From an uncultured Actinomycetota bacterium (GTDB taxonomy: Bacteria > Actinomycetota > Actinomycetes > JAFAQI01), in the NCBI GenBank assembly GCA_963835405.1, contig CAWIFV010000010.1, positions 15,150-79,149 on the forward strand: a stretch of DNA of 64,000 bases, written 5' to 3'. This document shows, piece by piece, positions 17,251 through 55,030 of the stretch. Made by a program: the position numbers and the translations under genes. The stretch's first letter is position 1, and every line of letters starts with the position of its first letter. Under the pieces are notes generated by a model. That model made no database searches. It had not been told where the DNA came from and saw nothing but the letters and a program-made list of their open reading frames with translations.

Positions 17251-17384
17251 CACCGCCCAGTGTGGCATCGGCCGCGGCGCCGTGGTCGGACCGGCGGCAC
17301 CTGTGGACAACCGCCGCGCGGCAGGAATCCGGTCGGCCACGATGAACTCCCTTCCCCGCCGTACCGGATCACGAGGAGGCGTAC

Positions 17385-18056
17385 GTGACGGACCTCGCCT
17401 CGCCGCGCGCGGTGCGGCTGAGCACCCCCCGCTGGCTCGACGCCCGGCTCGCCGTCGGCGTGCTGCTCGTGCTCGTCGCCGTCGTCGCCGGAGCCCGGGT
17501 GTTCGCCGCCGCCGACGACTACACCCGGGTCTACGTCGCGGCCCACGACCTGGCGCCCGGCCACCACGTCACCGCCGACGACCTCGCCGTCGGGCGGGTC
17601 CGGCTGACCGGCGGGCTGAGCCGTTACGTCGCCGCCGGGCCGGCCCTGCCGGTCGGTTACGTCGTCACCCGGTTCGTCGGCGCGCACGAGCTGCTGCCCG
17701 CGGCCGCGCTCGCCGGCGGGCAGGCGCCGGCCCGGACCCGGCTCGTCACCGTCCCGGTCCAGGCCGGGCATCTGGCCGACGCGCTGGTGCCGGGCGACCT
17801 CGTCGACGTCTACCTCACGCCCAAGGTGGGCGCGGGTGAGCCGGTCCCGGCGCCGACGCTCGTCGTCGCCGGCGTACCGGTCGAGTCGCGGTCGGGCGGG
17901 CAGCGTGGTCTCGGCGGCGCGGCCACGACGGCGGTGGTGCTCTCGGTGCCCGTCGCCGAGGTCGTCACCCTCGTCCATGCCGTCGAGAGCGGCAGCCTCG
18001 ACCTCGTGTCGGTGCCGGCGGCGGTCGCCGCGGCCGAGCCGGCGGCGCAGCCGTGA
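17385..18056 (+). CDS. SAF-domain / CpaB-like Flp pilus assembly protein
   Basis: ORF 17385..18056 has an N-terminal TM segment and a SAF-like region (VYVAAHDLAPGHHVTADDLAVGRV). Followed by a CpaE-like ATPase with a start/stop overlap. Confidence 0.65.
   Translation: MTDLASPRAVRLSTPRWLDARLAVGVLLVLVAVVAGARVFAAADDYTRVYVAAHDLAPGHHVTADDLAVGRVRLTGGLSRYVAAGPALPVGYVVTRFVGAHELLPAAALAGGQAPARTRLVTVPVQAGHLADALVPGDLVDVYLTPKVGAGEPVPAPTLVVAGVPVESRSGGQRGLGGAATTAVVLSVPVAEVVTLVHAVESGSLDLVSVPAAVAAAEPAAQP

Positions 18057-32900: not shown

Positions 32901-32904
<4 letters not shown>
32659..32904 (+). CDS. TM-helix-containing ORF, probably the frameshifted C-terminal tail of the giant repeat protein
   Basis: The frame is open from 32458 (own translation ...PGPDVLPTPAAVEQAIARIGQLTETVRQAGHKAAHAAVDTAQHVLPAMRD...). 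It contains the hydrophobic helix FPLMLLFVVIAFLVM. Its TGA overlaps the ATG of the cyclase gene (ATGA at 32901-32904). Confidence 0.5.
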
Positions 32905-34462
<1,558 letters not shown>

Positions 34463-34466
<4 letters not shown>

Positions 34467-35524: not shown

Positions 35525-35706
35525 ACGAGGACTAGTCGGGTCGGTGCGGGTGTCCTGACCCGTTGTCGTCAGCCTCATCATCCGTTCGGCTAATTCTTCC
35601 GTGCATTCGGGTGTATCTGCGTCATATCGACACGGGATGCTTTGACTCGCCGGAGATATCGCGTGACGGTGCAGTCACCGTCGGCCGTCGGCTGGCGGAG
35701 TGCGCA

Positions 35707-35796
35707 CCCGGGGAGGCGTCGACACCGCGACCGAGCAGTCGGTCACCTTGGCTCGGGGGAGCCGCGGTCGCGGCGAGCCACTGGTGGGACCGGCCC
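35707..35796 (+). promoter_or_regulatory. conserved structured 5' leader element, copy 3 (diverged)
   Basis: CCGCGACC (35725-35732) pairs with GGTCGCGG (35766-35773). The enclosed hairpins are ACCGA-gcag-TCGGT and GGCTC-gggg-GAGCC. The tail is GGCGAGCCACTGGTGGGACCGGCCC (35772-35796). It ends 32 nt before ATG 35829. Confidence 0.6.
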
Positions 35797-35828
35797 CGGC
35801 ACCGCGTCGGACGACAGGGGTGCCCGGG

Positions 35829-38800
35829 ATGATCGCAAACTCACATCGGCTCCGGAGGCTGTTCGCCGGGGCCGTGAGCCTCGCCGTGCTCGCCAGCACC
35901 GCGGTCGCTTTCAGCCCGTTCGGCAGTTCGGCCGGCGCCGCCATCACGGTGATCCCATCCAACTACTTCACGGTGCAGGACGGGACGGCGAACGACGAGC
36001 CCGGGCAGAAGGACCTCACCCAGATGGGCCGGGACGACACCAGCGCCTCCCGGCTGCTGGTCTTCTGGAGCTGGGACGACACCGACTTCTCGGGCCAGGC
36101 CGGCGATGCCTGCGCGCTGTTCAGCGCCACGTCCGACGGACATGTGACCTTCGCCATCTGCGGCGAGGTCGTCAACGGCGCCACGCCCGGCACGGTCGTG
36201 CTGAACGCCGGGTTCCCGACCGGCTACACCTGCACCCCCACGGTGCACCCGCTGGACCGCTGCGACTCGGGGTTGGCGGCGTCCATCGGTACGACGACGG
36301 CGGGGCCCATCAGCGGCGGCGGCACCGACCTCGTGACCCAGACCGACCCCTTCAACAAGCCGTCGGGGACCAACACCACGCTCGCTCTCGACATCCAGCG
36401 CAGCGCTCTTCCGTCCGGGGTCAACCTGGTGAACGTCTGCTCCTACCCGTCGATCGCCAACGGCGCCAACAACGACCCGTCGGACTGCATCGTCACCCCC
36501 GGTGGTGGCTTCCTGCAGATCGTCAAGAACGCGACCGGCGGCGACCGCACGTTCGACTTCACGATCAACCCGCTCGCCGTGGCCCGGTCGGTGACGACGT
36601 CCGGGGGCACCGGCACGAGCGCGCCGTACACCGCCGCGGCCGGGACGGGCTTCGAGGTCACGGAGTCCGTGCCCAGCAACTGGGACCTGGACTCGGCGTC
36701 GTGCCTGTTGCAGGACGGCACCACCTCGACCGGGACGTTCCACTCCGCGACGGACAAGGTCGACGGCATCACGGTCGAAGTCGGGCGGCTCACCACGTGC
36801 ACCTTCGCCGACGTCAAGGCCGACCCGAAGCTCCATCTCGTGAAGTCGACGACCACGGCCAACTTCAGCGCCGTCGGCGACACCATCGACTACACCTACA
36901 CGCTGACCAACACCGGCAATGTGCCGCTGACACCGCCCTACTCGGTCAGTGACGACAAGACGACGGTCTCGTGTGACCAGACACCCGACCCTCTGCCCGC
37001 TGGCGGGGTCACCGAAGTCAAGTGCACGGCCAGTTACACGGTCGATCAGGCCGATCTCGACGCCGGTTCGGTGACGAACGAGGCCACGGCGAAGGCGAAG
37101 TACAACGGCAACGACGTGCCGTCCAACCAGGCCAAGCTGACCGTCAACGCAATGCGGAGCCCTGCTCTCGGTCTCGACAAGGACAGCACCGACAAGGCGA
37201 ACGGCTACTCCAGCGTCGGCGACGTTCTGAACTACACCTACGACCTCACGAACATCGGCAACGTCACCCTCGACGCGCCGACTCGGTCGAGGACAAGGTC
37301 GAGAACACGACCCCGCTGACGGTCACTTGCCCGGTGGTGCCACTGCACCTGGCGCCAGGTGACCCCGCCGTCCAGTGCACTGCGACCTATGTGGTCACTC
37401 AGGACGACCTCGACCGCGGCTCGGTGACCAATGTTGCGAAGGGCCACGCCAAGTTCCTGGGGAAAGACGTGGCGTCGGCGACCGACTCGGTCACGATCGA
37501 CGCCAGCCAGAGCAAGTCGGTCATGCTGGAGAAGAAGGTCACGGAGCCGACCTACGATCACCTGGGTGAGGTCATCCAATACACCTACACGCTGACCAAC
37601 ACCGGGAACGTCACCCTGCATTCGCCATACAGCGTGGACGACGACAAGGTAGACGTCCTCGGGTCGGTCGATTGCTCGAACGGCCCGACCGACCTCGCTC
37701 CTGGGGGGCACTTCGACTGCTCGGCCACATACAAGATCACGCAGGCCGACCTCGACGCCGGCTCGCTGACCAACAATGCTCTCGGCCACGCCACGTTCGG
37801 CGGCAAGACCGTCGACTCCAACCCCGCCCAGAAGACGATCACGGCAATCCTGATGCCTGCCGTCTCGTTGGCGAAGTCGGCGGCCGAGCCCAGCTATAGC
37901 ACCCCCGGTACGGTGCTGCACTACACATACATTCTGACCAACACTGGAAATGTCACCTTGTCGGCTCCGTTTGCCGTGACGGATGACCACATCGCGACCG
38001 TCACCTGCGGCCAGCTTCCAGCGAGTCTCGCCCCGAGTGACCATGTCACCTGCACCGGGGCATACTCGGTCACGCAGTCGGACATCGATGCGGGGTCCGT
38101 GACGAACCACGCCACGGGATCGGCGGTCTTCGGGGTCACCACGATCACGTCGCAACCAGCCCAGGCCACGGTCCCGGCAGTGCGGGCCCCCGCCCTGACG
38201 CTCGTGAAGACCGCGCTCACCGCGGACTACGCGGCGGTGGGCGACGTCCTCGACTACACCTACACGCTGACCAACACCGGCAACGTGTCGCTGAGCGCGC
38301 CGTACGCCGTGGGCGACGATCTGATCGCCTCGGTCGACTGCTCGTCCGGGCCGGCGTCGCTGCCGCCGGGCGCGAGCTTCGACTGCACCGGCAGCTACGC
38401 CGTGACGCAGGCAGACCTGGACGCGGGCGCGGTCGTGAACCACGCGACCGCGACGGCCCACCAGCGTGGCGGGGTCGTCACGTCCAACCCGGGCGAGGCC
38501 ACCGTGCCGGCGGTCCAGGGGCCGGCGCTGAGCCTGGTCAAGAACGCGGCCGAAGCGTCGTACAGCGGCGCCGGGGACCAGCTGCACTACACCTACACGC
38601 TGACCAACTCCGGCAACGTGTCGCTGAGCGCGCCGTACGCGGTCGCCGACGACTGATCGCTACCGTCGCCTGCCCGGACACGCCCGCGAGCCTCGCGCCG
38701 GGGGAGCGGTCGCATGCACCGGGACCTACGACGTGACGCAGGACGACGTCAACGCGGGCAGTGTCATCAACCACGCGACGGCGTCGGCGACGTTCGGCGG

Positions 38801-39404
38801 CAATGCCGTCGGGTCCAACGAGGCCCAGGCCACCGTGCCCGCCATCCAGGACCCGCTCCTGACGCTGTCGAAGTCGGCGGACAAGGACTCGGTCACCTAC
38901 GGTGAGGAGCTCACCTACACGGTCTCGGCGACCAACACCGGCAACATCGACCTGACCGGTGTCGTGGTCAGCGATGCGATCCCGGACGGCACGACCTACG
39001 TGAAGGGCTCCGCGACTCCGGCCGCGATCGCGTCGTACGACGCCGGCACCGACGCGGTGAGCTGGACGGTCGGCGATCTCGCGGTCGGCGAGTCGGTCCG
39101 TGGGCTGACGTTCACGGTGACGGTCGACACGCCGGACTTCGACCCGACGGTGGGGTTGCCGGTCAGCACGATCGACAACGTCGCACTCGTCGAGGCGGAC
39201 TCCGTCGAGCCGGCGCCGTCGAACCACGTGAAGACGCCGGTCGTCGCCGTCCTCGGCATCAAGGAGGAGCGTCCGGAGCTGCCGTTCACCGGCTCCGCGC
39301 TGCCCATCCCACTCGCCTCCGGGCTGGCGGTGCTCATGATCCTGGCCGGTGCGCTGCTGACCGGATCCGTTCGCCGCCGCCGGTCTGGAGCGTTCGCCGC
39401 GTAG
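35829..39404 (+). pseudogene. LPXTG-anchored surface protein with prealbumin-like domain and about 8 DUF11/DUF7507-type repeats, 3 frame breaks (about 37270, 38652, 38712)
   Basis: Signal peptide MIANSHRLRRLFAGAVSLAVLASTAVA. Repeats follow Y.YTLTNTGNV.L....V.DD...V.C........L.PG....C...Y.VTQ.DLDAGSV.N across ORFs 35700..37319, 37022..38656 and 38733..39404. The C-terminal sorting signal is LPFTGS + TM + RRRR. Confidence 0.8.
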
Positions 39405-39956: not shown

Positions 39957-41222
39957 ATGGACTCGACAGCGGTCGTGGAGGAGGAGGTCCGCGAGCTCGT
40001 CCGCCGCCGCGGGCTCGACCCGGCCGCCGACGCCGCGGCGATCCGCCGGCTGGTCGAGGAGGTCATCGCCGACTACGACGAGCGGTCGCTGACCAGCTCG
40101 CTGCCGCCGCTGGCCGACCCGCCGCCGGCGGCCCGCGCAGGTCTACGACGCGGTCGCCGGGTTCGGGCCGCTGCAGCCCTACCTCGACGATCCCGAGGTC
40201 GAGGAGATCTGGCTGAACGAGCCCGGCCGGGTGTTCGTCGCCCGTCGCGGCCGGAGCGAGCTGACCACGACGATCCTCACCGCGGGCGAGGTCCGGGACC
40301 TCGTCGAGCGGATGCTGAAGTCCTCCGGCCGTCGGGTCGACCTGTCGAGCCCCTTCGTGGACGCGATGCTCGCCGGACGGGTCCCGGCTGCACGTCGTGA
40401 TCCCCGACATCACCCGGCTGCACTGGGCGTGAACATCCGGAAGTTCGTCGTCCCGGCCCATGCCCTCGACCAGCTCGTCGAGCCTCGGCACGCTACCCGC
40501 GCAGGCGGCGCGGTTCCTCGAGGCTGCCGTCGCCGCCGGGCTCAACATCGTCGTCGCCGGCGGCACGCAGGCGGGCAAGACGACGATGCTCAACTGCCTT
40601 GCCAACGCGATCCCGCCGCGGGAGCGGGTCATCACCTGCGAGGAGGTCTTCGAGCTTCGAATCGCCGCTGCCCGGACGTCGGTCGCGATGCAGACCCGGC
40701 AGCCGAGCCTGGAGGGCACCGGCGAGATGCGGCTGCGCCGGCTGGTCAAGGAGGCGCTGCGGATGCGTCCCGAGCGGATCATCGTCGGCGAGGTCCGGCA
40801 GGAGGAGGCGCTCGACCTGCTCATCGCCCTCAACTCCGGGATCCCGGGCATGGCACGATCCACGCCAACTCCGCTCGGGAGGCGTGACGAAGCTGTGCAC
40901 GCTGCCGCTGCTCGCCGGCGAGAACGTCAGCCACGCGTTCGTCGTACCGACCGTTGCCGCGAGCATCGACCTCGTCGTTCACATCGCGTGCGCGATGCGT
41001 CCGGGCAGCGCCGGGTGCGCGAGATCGTCGCGGTGCCCGGCCGGGTCGAAGGGCGACGTCATCGAGACGGCCGACATGTTCACGACCCGAGACGACCGGC
41101 TGGTCCGGGCAGAGGGCTGGCCGCCGCACCTCGACCGGTTCGCGCGCGCCGGCTGTGACGTGGCCGCCCTGCTGAACGACGCCTCGCGCACACCGGCTCG
41201 CGGGTCGATGGTGGCCGGCTGA
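39957..41222 (+). pseudogene. CpaF/TadA-type pilus assembly ATPase, at least 5 frame breaks
   Basis: Fragments in three frames: MDSTAVVEEEVRELVRRRGLDP, EIWLNEPGRVFVARRGRSELT, NIRKFVV, Walker A GGTQAGKTTMLN, RIIVGEVRQEEALDLL, HANSAREA. Ends at TGA 41220-41222. Confidence 0.8.
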
Positions 41223-42086
41223 TGGGCTCGGTCATCGGGCTGCGTCTTCGGCGTCGGGCTGCTGCTGATCTGGCGCAGCGGCCCGCGCAAGCCGCCGCCC
41301 CGCCGGACATCCGCCGCTCGCGCACCGAGCGCACCGCCGAGCTTCTCGCCCAGGCCGGGTACGCCGCGATCCGGCCCGAGCAGCTCTACGCGCGTGTGCG
41401 CCGGCACCGCGCTGGCGGCCGGCGGCCGTCGTCGGTGTGGCCACCCGGTCCGCCAGCATCGCCGTGGCGTTCGGCACGTTCGCCGCCTACGCGCCGGTCG
41501 CCCTGGTCAGGGCGCGGCGCCGGCGCCGCGCCGTCGAGCTGCGGGAGCTGTGGCCGGAGGTCGTCGACAACCTCGCGTCCGCGGTCCGTGCCGGGTTGTC
41601 GCTGCCGGAGGCCGTCGCGCAGCTCGGCGTCCGCGGGCCGGAGTCGCTGCGGGAGCCGTTCCAACGCTTCGGCGCGGACTACCGCGCCACCGGCCGTTTC
41701 GGCGCGTGCCTGGACCGGTTGAAGACGAGCCTCGCCGACCCGGTGGCCGACCGGATCGTCGAGTCGCTGCGGGTCGCGCGCGACGTCGGCGGCAGTGACC
41801 TCGGCCGGCTGTTGCGCACGCTCTCGCCAGTTCCTGCGCGAGGACGACCGGACCCGTGCCGAGCTCGAGACCCGGCAGGGCTGGACGGTGAACGCGGCCC
41901 GGCTCGCGCTCACGGCTCCCTGGGCGGTGCTGGCTCTGCTCGCGATGCGGCCCGAGACCGTCGCGGCCTACGACACCGCGGCCGGCGTGCTGGTGCTGCT
42001 CGTCGGCGGCGGCGTGTCGCGTCGTCGCCTACCGGCTCATGATGCGCATCGCCCGGTTGCCCGAGCAGGAGCGGGTGCTGCGATGA
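41222..42086 (+). pseudogene. TadB-like type II secretion system F-family membrane protein, about 3 frame breaks
   Basis: ORFs 41222..41722, 41437..42042 and 41795.. carry LRELWPEVVDNLASAVRAGLSLPEAVAQLG...ADRIVESLRVARDVGGSDLGRLL. Ends with an ATGA overlap onto the next gene. Confidence 0.7.
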
Positions 42087-43026
42087 CCCCGGTCGCCACC
42101 GGTGCGCTGTTCGGCCTCCTCGCGTCGGGTCGGGGTCGTGCTGGCGGTCGCCTCCAGCCCGCCGCTGCGCCGCCCGCGACTGGCCGACCGGCTCGCGCCC
42201 TACCTCCGCGACGCACCTCGCCCGTCCCGGCTGCTCGACCGGGCGCACGCCTCGACCCCGTTCCCGACCGTCGAGCGGCTGCTCGGTCCGGTGCTGCGCG
42301 ACGCCGCGCGCGTCGTCGACCGCGCCGTCGGAGGCACCGCGTCGGTACGTCGACGGCTGGACCAGGCGGGCCGGAACATGACCGTCGAGCAGTTCCGGAT
42401 CGAGCAGGTTCTGTGCGGCGCGGCCGGGCTGCTCGTCGGGCTGCTCGGTGCCCTCGCCGCGACCGTGCACGGGGGGCCGGCGAGCCCGGTCCTGTTCCTC
42501 GTCCTGTGCGCCGGGCTCGTCACCGCCGGCGTCCTCGGCCGCGACCGGCTGCTCTCCGCCGAGGTCGCCCGGCGCGAGCGGCGGATGCTGGTCGAGTTCC
42601 CGACCGTGGCCGAGCTGCTGGCGCTGGCCGTCGCCGCCGGCGAGGGCGCGGTCGGTGCGCTGGAGCGGGTCGCCCGGCTCTCGACCGGCGAGCTGGCGCG
42701 GCGAGCTCGGCCGGGCGCTGGCCGACGCCCGCGCCGGCGCCTCCCTCGTCGCCGCCCTGGAGGGGATGGCCGCGCGGACCTCGCTACCGGCTCTGGCCCG
42801 GTTCGTCGACGGGCTCGCGATCGCCATCGAGCGCGGCACGCCGTTGGCCGAGGTGCTGCGCGCACAGGCCGTCGACGCGAGCGAGGAGCAGCGCCGGGCG
42901 TTGCTCGAGGTCGGTGGACGCAAGGAGATCGCGATGCTCGTCCCGGTCGTCTTCCTCGTGCTGCCGGTCACCGTCGTCTTCGCCCTGTTCCCGGGCTTCT
43001 ACAGCCTCTCGCTCTCCGTTCCCTGA
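42083..43026 (+). pseudogene. TadC-like type II secretion system F-family membrane protein, 2 frame breaks (about 42125, 42700)
   Basis: ORF 42102..43172 (EFPTVAELLALAVAAGEGAVGALERVA) joins ORF 42448..43026 (LARFVDGLAIAIERGTPLAEVLRAQA...IAMLVPVVFLVLPVTVVF). Confidence 0.7.
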
Positions 43027-43063
43027 ACGTCCCCTCGTCCCGACGTACCGGAAAGGAACCCGC

Positions 43064-43273
43064 ATGCTCCCCTCCGTCCTGGTCGCGGTGTGGCACTTCG
43101 TGGGCCGGCGGCTGCCGGTTCTTCGCTCGGACCGAGGTGACGTCCCGGGGTGGGTGCTCATCACGCTCATGACCGCCGGCATCGTCACGGCGCTCTGGAT
43201 CGTGGCCGAGCCCAAGATGGCCAGCATCCTGGACGGCGCGCTCAGCATCTCCGGTGACCCGAACGCCAAGTGA
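43064..43273 (+). CDS. small hydrophobic Flp/DUF4244-like putative pilin
   Basis: In-frame ATG 43064 within ORF 41795..43273, 69 aa: MLPSVLVAVWHFVGRRLPVLRSDRGDVPGWVLITLMTAGIVTALWIVAEPKMASIL... It occupies the position of the pilin gene in actinobacterial tad loci. The canonical G/xxxxEY motif is absent. Confidence 0.5.
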   Translation: MLPSVLVAVWHFVGRRLPVLRSDRGDVPGWVLITLMTAGIVTALWIVAEPKMASILDGALSISGDPNAK

Positions 43274-43689
43274 GCCCCGGGCCGACGGGGGACCTCGGCG
43301 GCGGGGGCGTGACCGGCGACCGGGGCTCGGCCGCCGTCGACTTCGTCCTCGTCGGGTCGCTCGTCACGCTGATGTTCCTCGCCGTGCTCCAGCTCGGTGT
43401 CGACTACCACGTGCGCAACGTCCTGGCCGCGTGCGTGGCCGAGGGGGCGCGGTACGCCGCCAACGCCGACGTGGCCGACCCCCAGGCCGGGGCCGACAAG
43501 GCCAACGAGCTGATCCGCGCGTCGCTGGGGGAGTCGTTCGCGCGTGCCGAGGCGCCGGACGCGGCCGAGACGGTCGCCGGTGCACCGGTCGTCACCGTCA
43601 CGGTCCGGGCCCGGCTGCCGTTGCTCGCGTGGTTCCTGCCGGTCGGGCCGACGGTCACCGCGACCGGGCATGCGCTGGTCGAGCCATGA
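43270..43689 (+). CDS. TadE-like pseudopilin
   Basis: ORF 43270..43689 has GSAAVDFVLVGSLVTLMFLAVLQLG (TadE N-terminal pattern). Start/stop overlaps occur on both sides. Confidence 0.65.
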   Translation: MSPGPTGDLGGGGVTGDRGSAAVDFVLVGSLVTLMFLAVLQLGVDYHVRNVLAACVAEGARYAANADVADPQAGADKANELIRASLGESFARAEAPDAAETVAGAPVVTVTVRARLPLLAWFLPVGPTVTATGHALVEP

Positions 43690-44168
43690 CGGTCGCGAGA
43701 GTCGCGAACGCCGTGACCCGCCGGCGGGGCGATGCGGGCAGCGCCATCGTGGAGTTCGTCTGGCTCGCCGTGCTGTTGATGATCCCGCTCGTCTACGTCG
43801 TCCTCGCCGCGGTGTCGGTGCAGCGGACCGCGTTCGCGGAGTCGGCGGCGGCCAGGGAGGCGGCGCGGGCCTACGCGACGGCCGGGTCGGACGCCGAGGG
43901 GGAGCGGCGCGCCGAGGCGGCCGTCGCGCTGGCCATGCACGACCAGGGCGTCGACTGGCAGCCGACCGGGCGGGTCGTCGCCTGCGGTGCCTGCGGCTAT
44001 GAGCCGGGGTCGACGTTCACGGTCGACCTGCGCACGGTCGTGGCGCTGCCGTTCGTGCCCCGCTGGATGTGCGGGGATCGCTGCGCCGCGGGCATCCCGG
44101 TGAGCGCGCACCACCGGGAGCGGCTCGACTGCTACGCCGGCACCGGCATAGCGGGCACCTCGTGCTGA
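43686..44168 (+). CDS. TadE-like pseudopilin
   Basis: In-frame ATG 43686 within ORF 43254..44168, with RGDAGSAIVEFVWLAVLLMIPLVYVVLA. Confidence 0.6.
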   Translation: MTVARVANAVTRRRGDAGSAIVEFVWLAVLLMIPLVYVVLAAVSVQRTAFAESAAAREAARAYATAGSDAEGERRAEAAVALAMHDQGVDWQPTGRVVACGACGYEPGSTFTVDLRTVVALPFVPRWMCGDRCAAGIPVSAHHRERLDCYAGTGIAGTSC

Positions 44169-44647
44169 AGCCGGGCCGGGACGACGGGCAGCTCACGCTG
44201 CTCGTCATCGGTTTCTGCCTGGTCGCGGCGACGCTCGTCGTCGTCGCGGTCGACGTCTCGAAGGTGTTTCTCGCCCGGCGCGCGCTGTCGTCGGTCGCGG
44301 ACTCGGCGGCACTGCAGGCCGCGCAGGCACTCGACCGCGAGGCGATCTACGCGGGCCGGGCCGGGGGCTGCGGCTCGCTGCTGCCGTTGGACCCGGCGGC
44401 GGTCCGGCAGTCCGTCTGGTCGGCCGTCGACGACGACCTCGCCGACCTCCGGCAGACGTTCGCCGCCGTCGAGCCCCCGGCGGTGGACGTGGCCGCCGGC
44501 ACCGTGACCGTGCGGCTGACCGGGCAGGTGGCTGTGCCGTTCGGCCGCGTCCTCGCGCTCCTGCTGCCCGGGCACCCGGACGGCCGGGTGGCCGTCGGGG
44601 TCACGGCGTCGGCGCAGTCACCCCTGACGACCCCGGGCGGCTGCTGA
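44162..44647 (+). CDS. TadG-like/pilus-assembly membrane protein
   Basis: GTG 44162 within ORF 44069..44647, with DDGQLTLLVIGFCLVAATLVVVAVDVSKVFLARRAL. Last gene of the tad cluster. Confidence 0.55.
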   Translation: MLKPGRDDGQLTLLVIGFCLVAATLVVVAVDVSKVFLARRALSSVADSAALQAAQALDREAIYAGRAGGCGSLLPLDPAAVRQSVWSAVDDDLADLRQTFAAVEPPAVDVAAGTVTVRLTGQVAVPFGRVLALLLPGHPDGRVAVGVTASAQSPLTTPGGC

Positions 44648-45123: not shown

Positions 45124-46227
45124 ATGGCCACCGACGTCCGCGAGCAGCTCGCCGCGCTGTCCGCGACCCTCGGGTCGATCGAGGCGGTGCTCGACCTGCC
45201 CAAGATGCGCAAGGAGCTCGAGGAGCTCGAGCGCGACGCGACCGACCCCGACCTGTGGAACGACCAGGAGCGGGCGCAGAAGGTCACCAGCACCATGTCC
45301 TACCTCCGCGGCGACATCACCCGGGTCGAGGAGCTGCGGGCGCGGATCGACGACGTCGCCGCCGCCCTCGACCTCGACGATGCCGACCTCATCGAGGAGG
45401 CGGCCGCCGCCCTGCCGGCCCTCACCGCCGAGGTCGAGGCGCTGGAGGTCCGCACCCTGCTGTCCGGCGAGTACGACCAGCGCGAGGCCCTGGTCACCAT
45501 CAACGCCGGCACCGGCGGCACCGACGCCGCCGACTGGGCCGAGATGCTGCTGCGGATGTACCTGCGCTGGGCCGAGCGGCACGGCTACGCGACCGAGGTG
45601 TTCGACACGTCGTACGCCGAGGAGGCGGGCATCAAGTCGGCCACCTTCGTCGTCCACACGCCGTTCGCCTACGGGACGCTCGCCGGCGAGCACGGGGTGC
45701 ACCGGCTCGTGCGCATCTCGCCGTTCGACAACCAGGCCCGCCGGCAGACCTCCTTCGCCGGCGTCGACATCACCCCCGTCGTCGAGGCCACCGACCACGT
45801 GGAGATCCCCGACGAGGACATCCGGGTCGACGTCTACCGCTCCAGCGGCCCCGGCGGGCAGGGCGTCAACACGACCGACTCGGCGGTGCGCATCACCCAC
45901 CTCCCGACCGGCATCGTCGTCACCTGCCAGAACGAGCGGAGCCAGATCCAGAACCGCGCCCGCGCCATGGAGGTGCTGCAGGCCAAGCTGCTCGACGTAC
46001 GCCGGCAGGAGGAGGCCGACGAGATGGGCAGGCTCAAGGGCTCCCGCAACACCGTCGGGTTCGGCAGCGACGACATCATCCGCCACTACGTGCTGCACCC
46101 CTACCAGATGGTCAAGGACGCGCGCACCGAGGTCGAGGTGGGCAACACCGGCGCCGTTCTCGACGGCGACATCGACGCCTTCATCGAGGCCGAGATCCGG
46201 TGGCGCCGCCACCAGGCGGAGGACTAG
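45124..46227 (+). CDS. prfB: peptide chain release factor 2
   Basis: ORF 44992..46227 has SPF and GGQ motifs ([25 protein letters not shown]). The likely start is ATG 45124. Single frame, no programmed frameshift site. Confidence 0.9.
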
Positions 46228-46343
46228 CAGCGGCGCCTCAGCCGTTCGACGACTGGATCGTCCAAACGGGTGATTTCGCTAGGGACAATAAGGTCATTCG
46301 CGACGTTCGGCTTGACCGGTGTTGATCGCGAACCCACGCTGGC

Positions 46344-46436
46344 GTGACCGGGGGGCTACGAACCGCGACCGGGACACGGTCACCCTTCCCCGATCCCAGG
46401 GGAACGGTCGCGGGGAGCCAGTGGTGAGACCGACCC
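46344..46436 (+). promoter_or_regulatory. conserved structured 5' leader element, copy 1
   Basis: CCGCGACC (46363-46370) pairs with GGTCGCGG (46406-46413). The enclosed hairpins are ACCG-ggaca-CGGT and TTCCCC-gatccca-GGGGAA. The 25-nt tail GGGGAGCCAGTGGTGAGACCGACCC (46412-46436) is identical to 48484-48508. It ends 27 nt before ATG 46464. Confidence 0.65.
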
Positions 46437-46463
46437 ATAGACGGTAAGAGGGGTTGGTCGGTC

Positions 46464-48250
46464 ATGGCAGGCATCTCCCGGTGTCGCCGCTGGTTCTTCT
46501 CGCGGCAGACCGCACGCATCGGTGCGGCGGGGCTGCTCATCGCGTCGGTGACTCTCGGTGCCGCCACCATGGCGAGCGCCGCCCCCCCGGCCAACGGCAA
46601 CAACGGCACGGTCCAGATCGGGACGGGTAACGGCAACGACCCGCACCTGACCTGCCCCATCGCCATCAAATGGTCCGGCTTCGACGCCGGCGTGACCAAG
46701 GACTACGACGTCGCCTTCGGCGGCATCAGCCCCACTGGCGGAAGCCCGGCCGCGGTCGCCCCGTCGGACCCGACCAGCGGTTCCTTCACGACCACGGCCC
46801 AGACGCTCAACTACTGGCTGCAGATCACGGGCGGCACGCCGAAGAAGAACGGCGAGTACCACGTCAACATCACCGTCACGACGCAGCTTGCCGCCAACAC
46901 GGACACCAAGTCCAAGACCGTGTGGTTGAAGAACTGCGTGGGCAGCGGCACGGTCAGCGTCGCCGGCGCCTGCAACACCAACAAGGACGGCTACGACTGG
47001 ACCGTCACCGCCACCCCCGCCGTCGGTTCGCCGCCGGTCACCGGCAGCTGGACGAGCACCACGACCAACGGGACCTACGCCACCGACGCCGCCGGCGACG
47101 GGACGTTCTCCACCACCGGTGTGGGCGAGAACACGGTGACGCTCACCGTCAACGAGGCGGGCTGGACGGTCTCCCCGTCCGGCACACCGACCGCCACGGC
47201 GGTGGCGTGCGCAAGCGGCAACACCCCTTCCGATCTGAGCCTGTCGGCGGCGTGCTCGCCGACGACGGCCGGCCAGGTGGACTGGACCATCACCAACCCG
47301 GCCGGCAACCCGACCGTCGACGTCGTTGGCGTGAGCCCGACCGGCGCGGTCACCACCTCCGTCGCGCCCACCACGCTCGCCGCCGGCGCATCGGCCACGT
47401 TCACCACCGATGCTCCGCTGTCGACCGGCAACCTGACCGCGAGCGGGACGACCAACCCGGGCGGGGTCACCCTCACGTCCAACACGCTCGGCTTCGCCGG
47501 CACCTGCACCACGGGCTCGGCCGAGACTCCCGCGACGGTGACCTTCAGTGACACCTGCACGGTCGTCCACGTGGTGTTCACCAGCGCCGGACCAGCACAC
47601 GACCCGGTTCGACGTCACCGAGCCGGACGGCAGCACCGACACCGTCGTCGGCAGCGGCACCGCCGACTACCCGGCCGACGCCACGGACAAGCACATTCAG
47701 GTGAAGTACGACGGCCAGAGCGCCAACCACACGTGGACGGCGCCGGCCGGCTGCGGCAACGGCAACCCGGGCGTCGCGGACCCGAAGGTCTCGTCCAGCA
47801 AGGCCTGCAAGACCGGGATCACCGTCGTGCTGAGCAACATGGCCGGCACCGCCGACGTGGTGTTCACGGTCACGGGCGTCAACGGCAAGAGCCACGACGT
47901 CGCGGTCCGCGCCGGGCAGATCGTGCGGAAGAGCTACTTCGTGACGGAGGACAGCACCGGTGAGGTCACCGTGTCCGCCCCGGGCCTGGCGACGAGGACC
48001 ATCACCTACGCCAAGGACTGCGCCACCGTCCTCGCCGAGAAGACAGACGAAGACACCGAAGACGACGAAGACACCGACGGTGAAGCCGGTCGTGCAGGGC
48101 GAGAAGGTGACCCAGCTGCCGTTCACCGGTGACTCGACCAAGAGCGAGGGGATGGTCGCGGCCGCACTGCTCTTCCTCGGCTCGGTCCTCTGCTGGGTCG
48201 GCAGCCGTCGGCGCCGACCGGCGCGAGCCGGTGCCTGGCGCGAGGGCTGA
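46464..48250 (+). pseudogene. LPXTG-anchored surface protein, 2 frame breaks (about 47585, 48065)
   Basis: Signal peptide (IGAAGLLIASVTLGAATMASA). The body is Thr/Gly-rich and lies in ORFs 46464..47963 and 47548..48132. The sorting signal LPFTGD + TM + RRRR lies in ORF 47960..48250. Confidence 0.7.
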
Positions 48251-48423
48251 CCGACAGGCGACGCAGCGGGCGGTCCCGAGACATCGGGGCCGTCCTCTTC
48301 GCTGTGTCCGGGCGGGTAGCCAGGCAGGGGTCTGCGGCCGCCGGTCCGAATACGGACATATCCGGCTACCTCCCTTGACGTACGGTTACCGACCGGCAAC
48401 CGTGTGAGCGCGCCCTGCCCGGG

Positions 48424-48508
48424 CGTGGGGGGCATGGATCCGCGGCCGGTACGCCGGTCACCGTTCCGCGAGGAGACGGCCGCGGGGAGCCAGTGGTGAG
48501 ACCGACCC
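48424..48508 (+). promoter_or_regulatory. conserved structured 5' leader element, copy 2
   Basis: CCGCGGCC (48440-48447) pairs with GGCCGCGG (48478-48485), a compensatory A:T to G:C change relative to copies 1 and 3. The second hairpin is TTCC-GCGA-GGAG. The 25-nt tail is identical to copy 1. It ends 24 nt before ATG 48533. Confidence 0.65.
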
Positions 48509-48532
48509 GTCGCGCAGCACGGGAGGGTCGCC

Positions 48533-49483
48533 ATGGGCCGCACGTCACGAGTCGCCGCCGGATGCATCGCCGCGGTGGCGATCGCGCCCTGGATCGGCGC
48601 GGCGGTCGCCGTCGGTGAGGTCAACCCGACGACGTACGACGGCAACGCGACCAGCTGCGCCGACGTCGACCTTGCCGGCGACAGCCAGGTCGGCGTCGGA
48701 GGCTCCGGCGGCCTCGACCAGGACGGCTTCACCGTCACCAGCGACGGCCAGTACCTCAACGTCACCGACACGCCGGACGGCACCGATATCGACGCCGTCG
48801 TGGTCAAGGCCGGCGACGCCTACAACGTCTACGCGTCGGCGATCGACGACATGCGGGGCCCCGGCGTCGGCAAGAACGGCAACGTCCCCACCATCAGCCA
48901 CTGGTTCCTCTGCTACCCCCCGGCCGACGAGGACACCGGCGGCGGGGGCGCGGGCGGCGGCGACCAAGGTGCCGGCGGCGGCGACCAAGGTGCCGGCGGC
49001 GGCGACCAAGGTGCCGGCGGCGGCGACCAGGACACCGGTGGGGACCAGGACACCGGTGGGGACCAGGGCGCGGGCGGCGGCGACCAGGGTGCCGGCGGCG
49101 GCGACCAGGACACCGGCGGGGACCAGGGCGCCGGGAACAACACCGACGGGGATCAGCCGGGCGGTGGCGGCGGCGACACGGCCGGCGGTGAGGTGGCCGG
49201 CAACGGGGCGGACAAGGCCTCGAGCGATGACGGCACCCAGGTGCTCGGCACCAAGATCACCCGGCACCCGCACCGCTCCCAGCAGACCGGCGGCGGGCGG
49301 ACGGTGCAGACACCCTCGGTGAGTGCGACGGGGGCCGAGGTAGCGGGGGGCGAGGTGGCGGCGCTGCCGTTCACGGGCGCCGCGAGCGCGCGGCTCCTGA
49401 GCTTCGCGCTGGCGCTGCTCGCGTTCGGGTCCGGGCTCGTGCTGGTGAGCCGCCGGCCGGCAACCGGCCGGCGCCGCGCCTGA
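48533..49483 (+). CDS. LPXTG-anchored surface protein with GGDQGAG/GGDQDT tandem repeats
   Basis: ORF 48533..49483 has a signal peptide, a globular N-terminal domain, low-complexity repeats, and LPFTGA + TM + RRPATGRRRA. Confidence 0.8.
   Translation: MGRTSRVAAGCIAAVAIAPWIGAAVAVGEVNPTTYDGNATSCADVDLAGDSQVGVGGSGGLDQDGFTVTSDGQYLNVTDTPDGTDIDAVVVKAGDAYNVYASAIDDMRGPGVGKNGNVPTISHWFLCYPPADEDTGGGGAGGGDQGAGGGDQGAGGGDQGAGGGDQDTGGDQDTGGDQGAGGGDQGAGGGDQDTGGDQGAGNNTDGDQPGGGGGDTAGGEVAGNGADKASSDDGTQVLGTKITRHPHRSQQTGGGRTVQTPSVSATGAEVAGGEVAALPFTGAASARLLSFALALLAFGSGLVLVSRRPATGRRRA
48944..49136 (+). repeat. in-frame tandem repeats, 21-nt (GGDQGAG) and 18-nt (GGDQDT) units
   Basis: Read directly: ggcggcgaccaaggtgccggc occurs 3 times, then ggggaccaggacaccggt units, then further 21-nt units. 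Confidence 0.85.
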
Positions 49484-53175: not shown

Positions 53176-53652
53176 ATGGCCAAGGAGCGCGGGCGCAAGC
53201 TCGTCGCGCAGAACAAGAAGGCGCGGCACGACTACCACCTCGACGACTTCTACGAGGCCGGGCTCGTGCTCACCGGCACCGAGGTGAAGTCGCTGCGGGC
53301 CGGCCGGGCCTCGCTCGTCGACGCCTACGCCCACATCAAGGACGGCGAGGTGTGGCTGGAGAACGCGCACATCCCGGAGTACGACCAGGGGTCGTGGACC
53401 AACCACGAGCCGCGGCGGTCGCGCAAGCTGCTGCTGCACCGCGAGGAGATCGGCCGCCTGATCGGCAAGACCAAGGAGAGCGGCATCACGCTGGTGCCGC
53501 TGTCGCTGTACTTCAAGGACGGCAAGGCGAAGGTCGAGATCGCGCTGGCGCGCGGCAAGAAGTCCTACGACAAGCGGCAGGCACTGGCGGCGCGGGACGC
53601 GGCGCGGGAGATCGACCGCGCGGTGGGGCGGCGCGCGAAGGGCCACGTGTGA
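53176..53652 (+). CDS. smpB: SsrA-binding protein SmpB
   Basis: ORF 53176..53652 contains [29 protein letters not shown]...[10 protein letters not shown]. Confidence 0.92.
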
Positions 53653-54614: not shown

Positions 54615-54971
54615 GGGGGTGAACGGTTTCGACTTCGGACGTCGACTCAAGGGAAGCGGGTCGAGGATGTCGCGTGATCTCGTAAATCCATCGCGGCAAC
54701 TTCAATAAGTGCCGATAACAGCGCACTCGCCAAAGCTGCTTGATTAAGTAGCTGGCTGTCAGCCCAGGGATGCCCTCGCTCTGGGACCTGGCATCGATAG
54801 AGGGCTCCACCGATCGGCCCGGTCACGGGGCCGGTCGGGAAATCAAACAGTGACTGAGCCCGCAGCGACTTGCCTGCGAGATCGCTGGGGCTGAGAAAAC
54901 TGCAGCAGGCTGCACCCGGAGAAGCCTTGACGAGCCGCCGAAGGACCCGGGTTCGATTCCCGGCACCTCCA
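54615..54971 (+). ncRNA. ssrA: tmRNA (ssrA)
   Basis: The 5' GGGGGTGAACGGTTTCGAC pairs with the 3' ...GGTTCGATTCCCGGCACCTCC-A (T-arm plus acceptor stem). The tag reading frame resumes at GCC 54711: ADNSALAKAA, stop TGA 54741-54743. It directly follows the smpB region. The 3' CCA is not encoded (actca). Confidence 0.88.
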
Positions 54972-55030
54972 CTCACCGCGTGATCTTCGCCGCTGTGACC
55001 AGTTTTCGGCGCGACACGCCGTTCAAGTGG

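Follow-up and report, generated by a model that had tools for sequence, protein, structure and literature searches.

Leader RNAs of the c-di-GMP-II-GAG riboswitch class precede three LPFTG surface-protein genes in an uncultured Actinomycetota bacterium

The locus and its genes

The window, by which we mean the whole stretch of 64,000 nucleotides analysed here, has a GC content of 72.8% and contains three plus-strand genes that lie downstream of closely similar leader elements. These genes and the neighbouring features that are referred to below are the following:

35829–39404, plus strand: gene 1, a large surface protein with a SpaA-like prealbumin domain, DUF7507 and DUF11 repeats, and LPFTG at 39279
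46464–48250, plus strand: gene 2, with a signal peptide and LPFTG at 48116
48533–49483, plus strand: gene 3, whose secreted product has a signal peptide, repeats of the GGDQ type and, at its C-terminus, an LPFTG sortase signal (49364)
32901–34466, plus strand: a membrane-bound GGDEF diguanylate cyclase with GGEEF, an RxxD I-site and a canonical GHVVGD
53176–53652, plus strand: smpB
54615–54974, plus strand: tmRNA gene (165 bits)

All three downstream genes encode signal-peptide proteins, and the only three LPFTG signals of the window are those that end them. Genes 1 and 2 are each split over three reading frames, which reflects either assembly indels or pseudogenes; the gene 2 ortholog on a syntenic metagenome contig (L121, positions 1–1309) is a single intact frame ending in ELPFTG. 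No Pfam domain was found in gene 3, the homologs of which are small proteins, two of them labelled by their sources as LPXTG cell-wall-anchored. A run of GAGGGDQ and DTGGDQ repeats, encoded at 48930–49170, lies between the N-terminal domain of its product and the LPFTG anchor. The conserved prfB-ftsE-ftsX-smpB-ssrA block is interrupted between prfB and ftsE by genes 2 and 3. Tad/Flp pilus genes (a T2SSE-type ATPase fragment, TadE, a TadG-like protein and RcpC/CpaB), found at 40460–44647 and 17346–18056, sit between and upstream of the riboswitch genes, and several open reading frames in the 39.4–43.2 kb region gave no Pfam match. The window also carries LpqB and SecA, which together with this block and the GC content point to Actinomycetota.

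Assignment to a catalogued riboswitch family

When the whole window was scanned against Rfam at the gathering thresholds, RF03169, the c-di-GMP-II-GAG riboswitch aptamer, was matched three times over its full length on the plus strand, each time above the curated gathering score of 40 bits:

48419–48517, plus strand: aptamer copy 2, upstream of gene 3; 60.3 bits, E-value 1.7e-9, model positions 1–86 of 86
46342–46444, plus strand: paralogous aptamer upstream of gene 2; 62.4 bits, E-value 5.1e-10, model positions 1–86 of 86
35703–35804, plus strand: paralogous aptamer upstream of gene 1; 51.8 bits (the lowest of the three copies), E-value 2.6e-7, model positions 1–86 of 86

No fourth copy was detected in a permissive Rfam scan of the window. 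Against a covariance model that we derived from the three copies, copy 2 scored 97.4 bits. The window contains the 21-nt core GAGCNANTGGYGRGACCGNCC three times where 0.06 occurrences would be expected, a repetition far beyond chance. Within the clan CL00127, for which only the best-scoring match is reported and weaker ones are suppressed, the best model was RF03169 and not the canonical RF01786 for all three window copies, as well as for 28 of 28 aptamers from 18 related loci. Neither c-di-GMP-I (GEMM-I) nor its c-AMP-GMP variant, the fold of which is unrelated, gave an Rfam match in the window in the gathering or the permissive scan.

The element at 48419–48517 therefore belongs, with very little doubt, to the c-di-GMP-II-GAG riboswitches, a catalogued variant class of the class II c-di-GMP riboswitch, and the RF03169 matches make the finding copy 2 of a catalogued family. 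The helix of the leader RNA is real; the element itself is an already-known family and not a new one. A preliminary description of this DNA had proposed a structured cis-regulatory leader RNA without recognising its family. The proposal is supported, all of its sequence statements were found to be correct when the window was re-read at 48200–48800, 35560–35920 and 46200–46560, and the covariance-model analysis that it suggested gave Rfam matches to all three copies. The window copies share with RF03169 the full-length model match, P1, the kink-turn, P2, the pseudoknot and the position in the 5′ leader, and their relatives were likewise found in Actinomycetota and Chloroflexota; copy 2 also carries a GAG triplet, putatively the name-giving one. 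They differ in that they fall into a subgroup whose P2 loop carries an additional hairpin and whose P1 has just 3–7 bp, and in that the copy at 35703 has GGG, not GAG.

A core-pattern scan of species-representative genomes, the pattern of which fixed most of the pseudoknot 3′ strand and allowed GRG at the GAG triplet, gave at least 120 loci, mostly from metagenome-assembled genomes (MAGs) of Chloroflexota and Actinomycetota. Using the covariance model from the three window copies, 116 aptamers from the window and 99 of the loci listed were assembled into the family alignment, and the remaining listed loci contained 23 further aptamers. Among the matches listed there are thus more than 130 relatives in two phyla, and several of the listed loci contain two or three aptamer copies, as the window does. 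Clusters of three to six tRNA genes were seen within a few kilobases of GAG riboswitches in four loci (L076, L099, L014 and L002) from MAGs of Acidimicrobiia and Acidobacteriota. A syntenic counterpart of the copy 2 region is the metagenome contig L121 (ENA ERZ27293244 k141_4844578, 1–2013), on which the gene 2 ortholog, a riboswitch (71.8 bits) and a gene 3 ortholog follow one another in the same order. The product of gene 3 is 48% identical to that of its ortholog there, and the riboswitch differs from copy 2 by two more compensatory changes in P2. Among the contigs with gene 3 homologs (L121–L125) only L121 has the riboswitch, which is absent near the more distant homologs in L122–L125.

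Fold of the aptamer

The elements of copy 2 are arranged as follows:

48419–48429, plus strand: P1 5′ strand, paired with 48506–48517 in the Rfam alignment
48431–48439, plus strand: 5′ side of the kink-turn, with the C-stem GGC, the bulge AUG and G-A-U; its partner is G-GA-GCC at 48486–48491
48440–48447, plus strand: P2 5′ strand CCGCGGCC, paired with 48478–48485
48455–48462, plus strand: pseudoknot 5′ strand CGGUCACC, in the P2 loop, paired with GGU at 48495–48497 and GACCG at 48500–48504
48464–48475, plus strand: optional insert hairpin UUCC-GCGA-GGAG, in the P2 loop
48478–48485, plus strand: P2 3′ strand GGCCGCGG
48495–48504, plus strand: pseudoknot 3′ strand GGUGAGACCG, which contains the GAG triplet at 48498–48500

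Copy 2 is able to form every pair of P1, the kink-turn stem and P2. In the 116-sequence alignment, 80.7% of the cells of P1, the kink-turn stem, P2 and the pseudoknot are standard pairs, against 29–43% when the partners are slid by one to three columns, and covariation scores 0.284, compared with no more than 0.08 for slid partners. The outer part of P1 is variable among the 116 relatives; its inner four pairs are kept (GC in 113; GC in 108; GC in 86 and GU in 19; CG in 53 and others). The GA/GA of the kink-turn is near-invariant, with G in 109 and A in 113 of the 116 on the 5′ side and G in 113 and A in 115 on the 3′ side, and its GGC/GCC stem is 95% paired. P2 corresponds to the closing helix that had been proposed from a compensatory change of A:U to G:C between copy 2 and the other copies, in which the strands are CCGCGACC and GGTCGCGG (35725–35732 with 35766–35773, and 46363–46370 with 46406–46413). 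This helix is borne out by the family: P2 is 92% paired in the 116 relatives, double changes occur at all eight of its pairs, and the pair that differs between the window copies is GC in 83 sequences and AU in 23.

An H-type pseudoknot joins CGGUCACC of the P2 loop to GGUGAGACCG of the 3′ tail. Its pair A48460:U48497 covaries (AU in 47, GC in 45, other in 2) and is the only informative one, the rest of the 3′ strand having been fixed by the search pattern. Both the pseudoknot and the kink-turn with its near-invariant GA/GA were overlooked in the preliminary description. In the copy at 35703, the segment 35786–35793 has, beside the GGG that replaces GAG, a G for A at the joining base 35793.

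Two hairpins had instead been placed inside P2. The first, GCCGG-tacg-CCGGT in copy 2 and ACCG-ggaca-CGGT in the other copies, is present in the sequence as described, and RNAalifold, which had been suggested as a check, does return the nested hairpins when it is run on the three window copies alone. This is because the inner half of P2 (GACCG/CGGUC) repeats both strands of the pseudoknot there (46366–46381 and 46406–46432, and the same in copy 35703), which gives an alternative nested fold. The larger alignment does not conserve this hairpin: its pairs are 32–93% paired among the 116 relatives, and overall pairing is 71.3% against 69.8% in shuffles. We therefore reject it as a conserved fold. 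We regard it as an artefact of nested folding, in competition with P2 and the pseudoknot strand CGGUC, to which its bases belong across the family. It may still form in the ligand-free RNA, since the family alignment splits P2 position 27 and pseudoknot position 39 between GC (36), GU (35) and AU (21); this split could equally reflect a base triple, strand exchange or a clade effect. The second inner hairpin, the stem capped by GCGA, is genuine, though it is a variable and optional insert. An insert of at least 14 nt stands in the P2 loop of 34 relatives. About 25 of these inserts form a single clean hairpin, their sequences being unrelated (mean z −1.9), and the insert of copy 2, with 4 bp and a GNRA loop, is the weakest of these stems.

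Ligand

The ligand would most likely be c-di-GMP or a closely related cyclic dinucleotide, and we put c-di-GMP itself at about even chances. The class was reportedly defined by Weinberg et al. (PNAS, 2017) through altered ligand-contact bases, a different messenger being proposed and the ligand left open. We presume the GAG at 48498–48500 to be the name-giving positions; by comparison with the 3Q3Z sequence, GAG would replace the GCA that stands, in the canonical class, immediately 5′ of the intercalating A. We know of no validation of a ligand for the GAG variant class, and a literature search for a later one found none.

A messenger other than c-di-GMP, that is, a different cyclic or linear dinucleotide or second messenger sensed by the GAG variant with the same fold and the same expression platform, is in our view a real if lesser possibility. 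It would agree with the fact that the best clan match is the variant model and not canonical c-di-GMP-II, and with the retention of GAG in 111 of the 116 relatives although GRG was permitted by the search. The comparison of c-di-GMP-I with its c-AMP-GMP variant provides a precedent, as one or two altered contact bases can retarget a cyclic-dinucleotide aptamer (PMC5473149). The high diversity of the downstream genes would be expected of a second messenger in general, and there is no enrichment of GGDEF genes near the relatives. Against this reading, a canonical diguanylate cyclase does lie adjacent in the window, 1.2 kb upstream of the copy at 35703. Because no GGDEF gene was found in 125 other riboswitch loci (860 kb), however, this adjacency is not a family trait and may be a coincidence. 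The regulon also speaks for c-di-GMP, as it resembles the classic output of this messenger, with sortase-anchored surface proteins and Tad pilus genes nearby, a pattern shared by canonical class II switches of Clostridia (PMC9481103, PMC6366702), and the class II aptamer is reportedly rather unselective (PMC11477304). That the GAG variant is altogether an orphan riboswitch for a non-c-di-GMP messenger, spread over Actinomycetota and Chloroflexota and governing a large, fast-evolving regulon of surface and secreted (sortase-anchored) proteins, seems to us less likely than not.

Downstream of the aptamers of the family at large, 76 of 113 open reading frames have signal-peptide-like N-termini, 24 of the 98 complete ones have LPXTG-like ends, and their Pfam content is very diverse. 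A signal-peptide motif, A(I/V)(A/V)PW(I/L/V)G, was observed to be common to otherwise unrelated downstream proteins (48533–48620 of the window and L029, L098, L084 and L016).

Expression platform and direction of control

The elements that flank the aptamer of copy 2 are the following:

48375–48380, plus strand: putative −35 box TTGACG, aligned with TTGACG in L121 and L117
48398–48403, plus strand: putative −10 box AACCGT (nAnnnT), inferred from its position 17 nt after the −35 box
48503–48508, plus strand: anti-RBS segment CGACCC, composed of the pseudoknot end, the joining A and the P1 3′ CCC; its partner is GGGUCG at 48525–48530
48521–48535, plus strand: Shine-Dalgarno GGGAGGG (48521–48527), spacer and ATG (48533–48535)

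The TTGAC hexamers, which had been put forward as possible −35 boxes for all three copies (TTGACC at 46312–46317 and TTGACT at 35642–35647 in the others), are probable ones. An nAnnnT follows at a 17-nt spacing in each case (AACCGT in copy 2, CACGCT at 46335–46340 and GACGGT at 35665–35670), and the TTGACG of copy 2 is conserved in L121 and L117. A strict scan of the three leaders found no full sigma-70 consensus promoter. Transcription of copy 2 is predicted to start near 48410.

Between aptamer and open reading frame, a terminator scan found no terminator-like site at any of the three copies, and transcription termination was rejected as the mode of control. The aptamers at 48419, 46342 and 35703 are followed by start codons after 15, 19 and 24 nt, respectively; in the family, a start codon is found 10–30 nt past the aptamer in 66 of 103 members, and an open reading frame on the same strand was called downstream of 113 of the 116 aligned aptamers. 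The absence of terminators, together with the nearby starts, makes it likely that control acts on the initiation of translation.

A pairing of the invariant tail GACCC (48504–48508) with GGGTC (48525–48529) at the ribosome-binding site had been noticed before; it can be extended by one pair to CGACCC/GGGUCG, and equivalents are found in L121 (CCGACCC:GGGUCGG) and in the copy at 46342 (GACCGACC:GGUCGGUC). This pairing is plausible. In copy 48419 the duplex has −12.2 kcal/mol against −8.1 kcal/mol for dinucleotide shuffles (p 0.01), it also exceeds shuffles in copy 46342 (p 0.03) and in L121 (p 0.01), and in the long-aptamer subgroup as a whole the values are −9.7 and −8.1 kcal/mol (p 0.005). 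The same shuffles gave no signal in copy 35703 (p 0.60) or in the short Chloroflexota members. The difference between own and cross tail-RBS duplexes across the family is small, but this control is unsuitable since the tail is invariant, and dinucleotide shuffles were used in its place. The aptamer tail is paired with the ribosome-binding site when the 3′ half of each of the three copies is folded to its minimum free energy.

Since CGACCC is part of both the pseudoknot and P1, the helix at the ribosome-binding site and the folded aptamer are mutually exclusive, and ligand should therefore free the site. Without ligand, CGACCC would pair with GGGUCG over the 3′ half of the Shine-Dalgarno sequence and mask the ribosome-binding site; with ligand bound, it would be locked in P1 and the pseudoknot, releasing the site, so that the element would work as an ON switch. 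Constrained folding of 83 relatives points the same way, as the Shine-Dalgarno sequence is freed in the bound state in 29 and hidden in 2, or freed in 24 and hidden in 7 when 30 nt of upstream flank are included. The start codon of L121 goes from an unpaired probability of 0.42 to one of 0.66 in the folding calculations. In C. difficile, the four class II switches are ON switches, two of which control sortase-anchored adhesins (PMC6366702, PMC11477304). The ON direction is, in our view, somewhat more likely than not.

The same riboswitch could also act in the OFF direction, if P1 were extended in the bound state by pairing of the leader 48410–48421 with 48520–48531, so that the ribosome-binding site would be occluded. 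In copy 2, and assuming the start at 48410, the leader GCGCCCUGCCCG indeed forms 10 of 12 pairs with CGGGAGGGUCGC (−26.1 kcal/mol), and in constrained folding from this position the Shine-Dalgarno sequence is unpaired with a probability of 0.29, which falls to 0.03 in the bound state. Given 30 nt of flank, binding reduces accessibility in the copy at 48419 and in that at 46342, and in the Rfam consensus P1 is rich in C at its 5′ end and in G at its 3′ end. The pairing is, however, not conserved in the syntenic L121, the leader of which folds on itself, and in 83 relatives the upstream flank shows no signal of pairing with the ribosome-binding site (own −12.1, cross −12.3 kcal/mol). In addition, the predicted start of copy 46342 (about 46346) excludes the C-rich stretch upstream, and the known class II switches are ON (PMC6366702). 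We regard an OFF switch as unlikely.

That the leader senses no ligand at all, being either a constitutive nested-hairpin leader (for mRNA stability or as a protein-binding site) or a dispersed repeat, would be in keeping with the RNAalifold result on the three copies and with unremarkable minimum-free-energy z-scores of whole leaders (−0.6 and −0.1), but it is very improbable given what the family shows. More than 130 relatives, spread over two phyla, retain the pseudoknot, the kink-turn and the invariant joining bases; a same-strand open reading frame follows 113 of the 116 aligned aptamers; and the nested hairpin is not conserved (71.3% against 69.8% in shuffles).

Comparison with class II switches and significance

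The explanation as a whole, namely a member of the c-di-GMP-II-GAG class that acts as a translational ON switch, responds to c-di-GMP or a close cyclic dinucleotide and has surface proteins as its output, is one that we hold to be probable. High levels of the messenger would then lead to more surface or adhesion protein from all three switches. Canonical c-di-GMP-II riboswitches, such as Cdi-2-3 upstream of CD2831 in C. difficile, belong to the same clan, CL00127, and have the same overall architecture. The window copies have the extra P2-loop hairpin, and copy 2 has GAG beside the pseudoknot, where canonical class II (PDB 3Q3Z) reportedly has GCA. The C. difficile examples work by transcription antitermination, in contrast to the window copies, which are terminator-less and apparently have a translational platform. 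In the type of regulon the two are alike: canonical class II switches are often found in front of surface-anchor genes (PMC9481103) and control sortase-anchored surface proteins and pili in the ON direction (PMC6366702, PMC11477304, PMC9481103).

The RNA itself is a rediscovery that any Rfam scan would annotate, and the known picture of the family is unchanged by it. The residual value lies in the context, where three switches within 13 kb each precede one LPFTG cell-wall-anchored protein, with diguanylate cyclase and Tad pilus genes alongside and a platform that is probably translational and not terminator-based. The locus, along with the syntenic L121, would be well suited for testing both the ligand and the direction of control. 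If the GAG variant did turn out to be an orphan riboswitch, the window, with its three switches, three LPFTG genes and cyclase, would be a compact system for identifying the ligand. As predicted here, the locus would document the control of surface proteins by a second messenger in high-GC Gram-positive bacteria.
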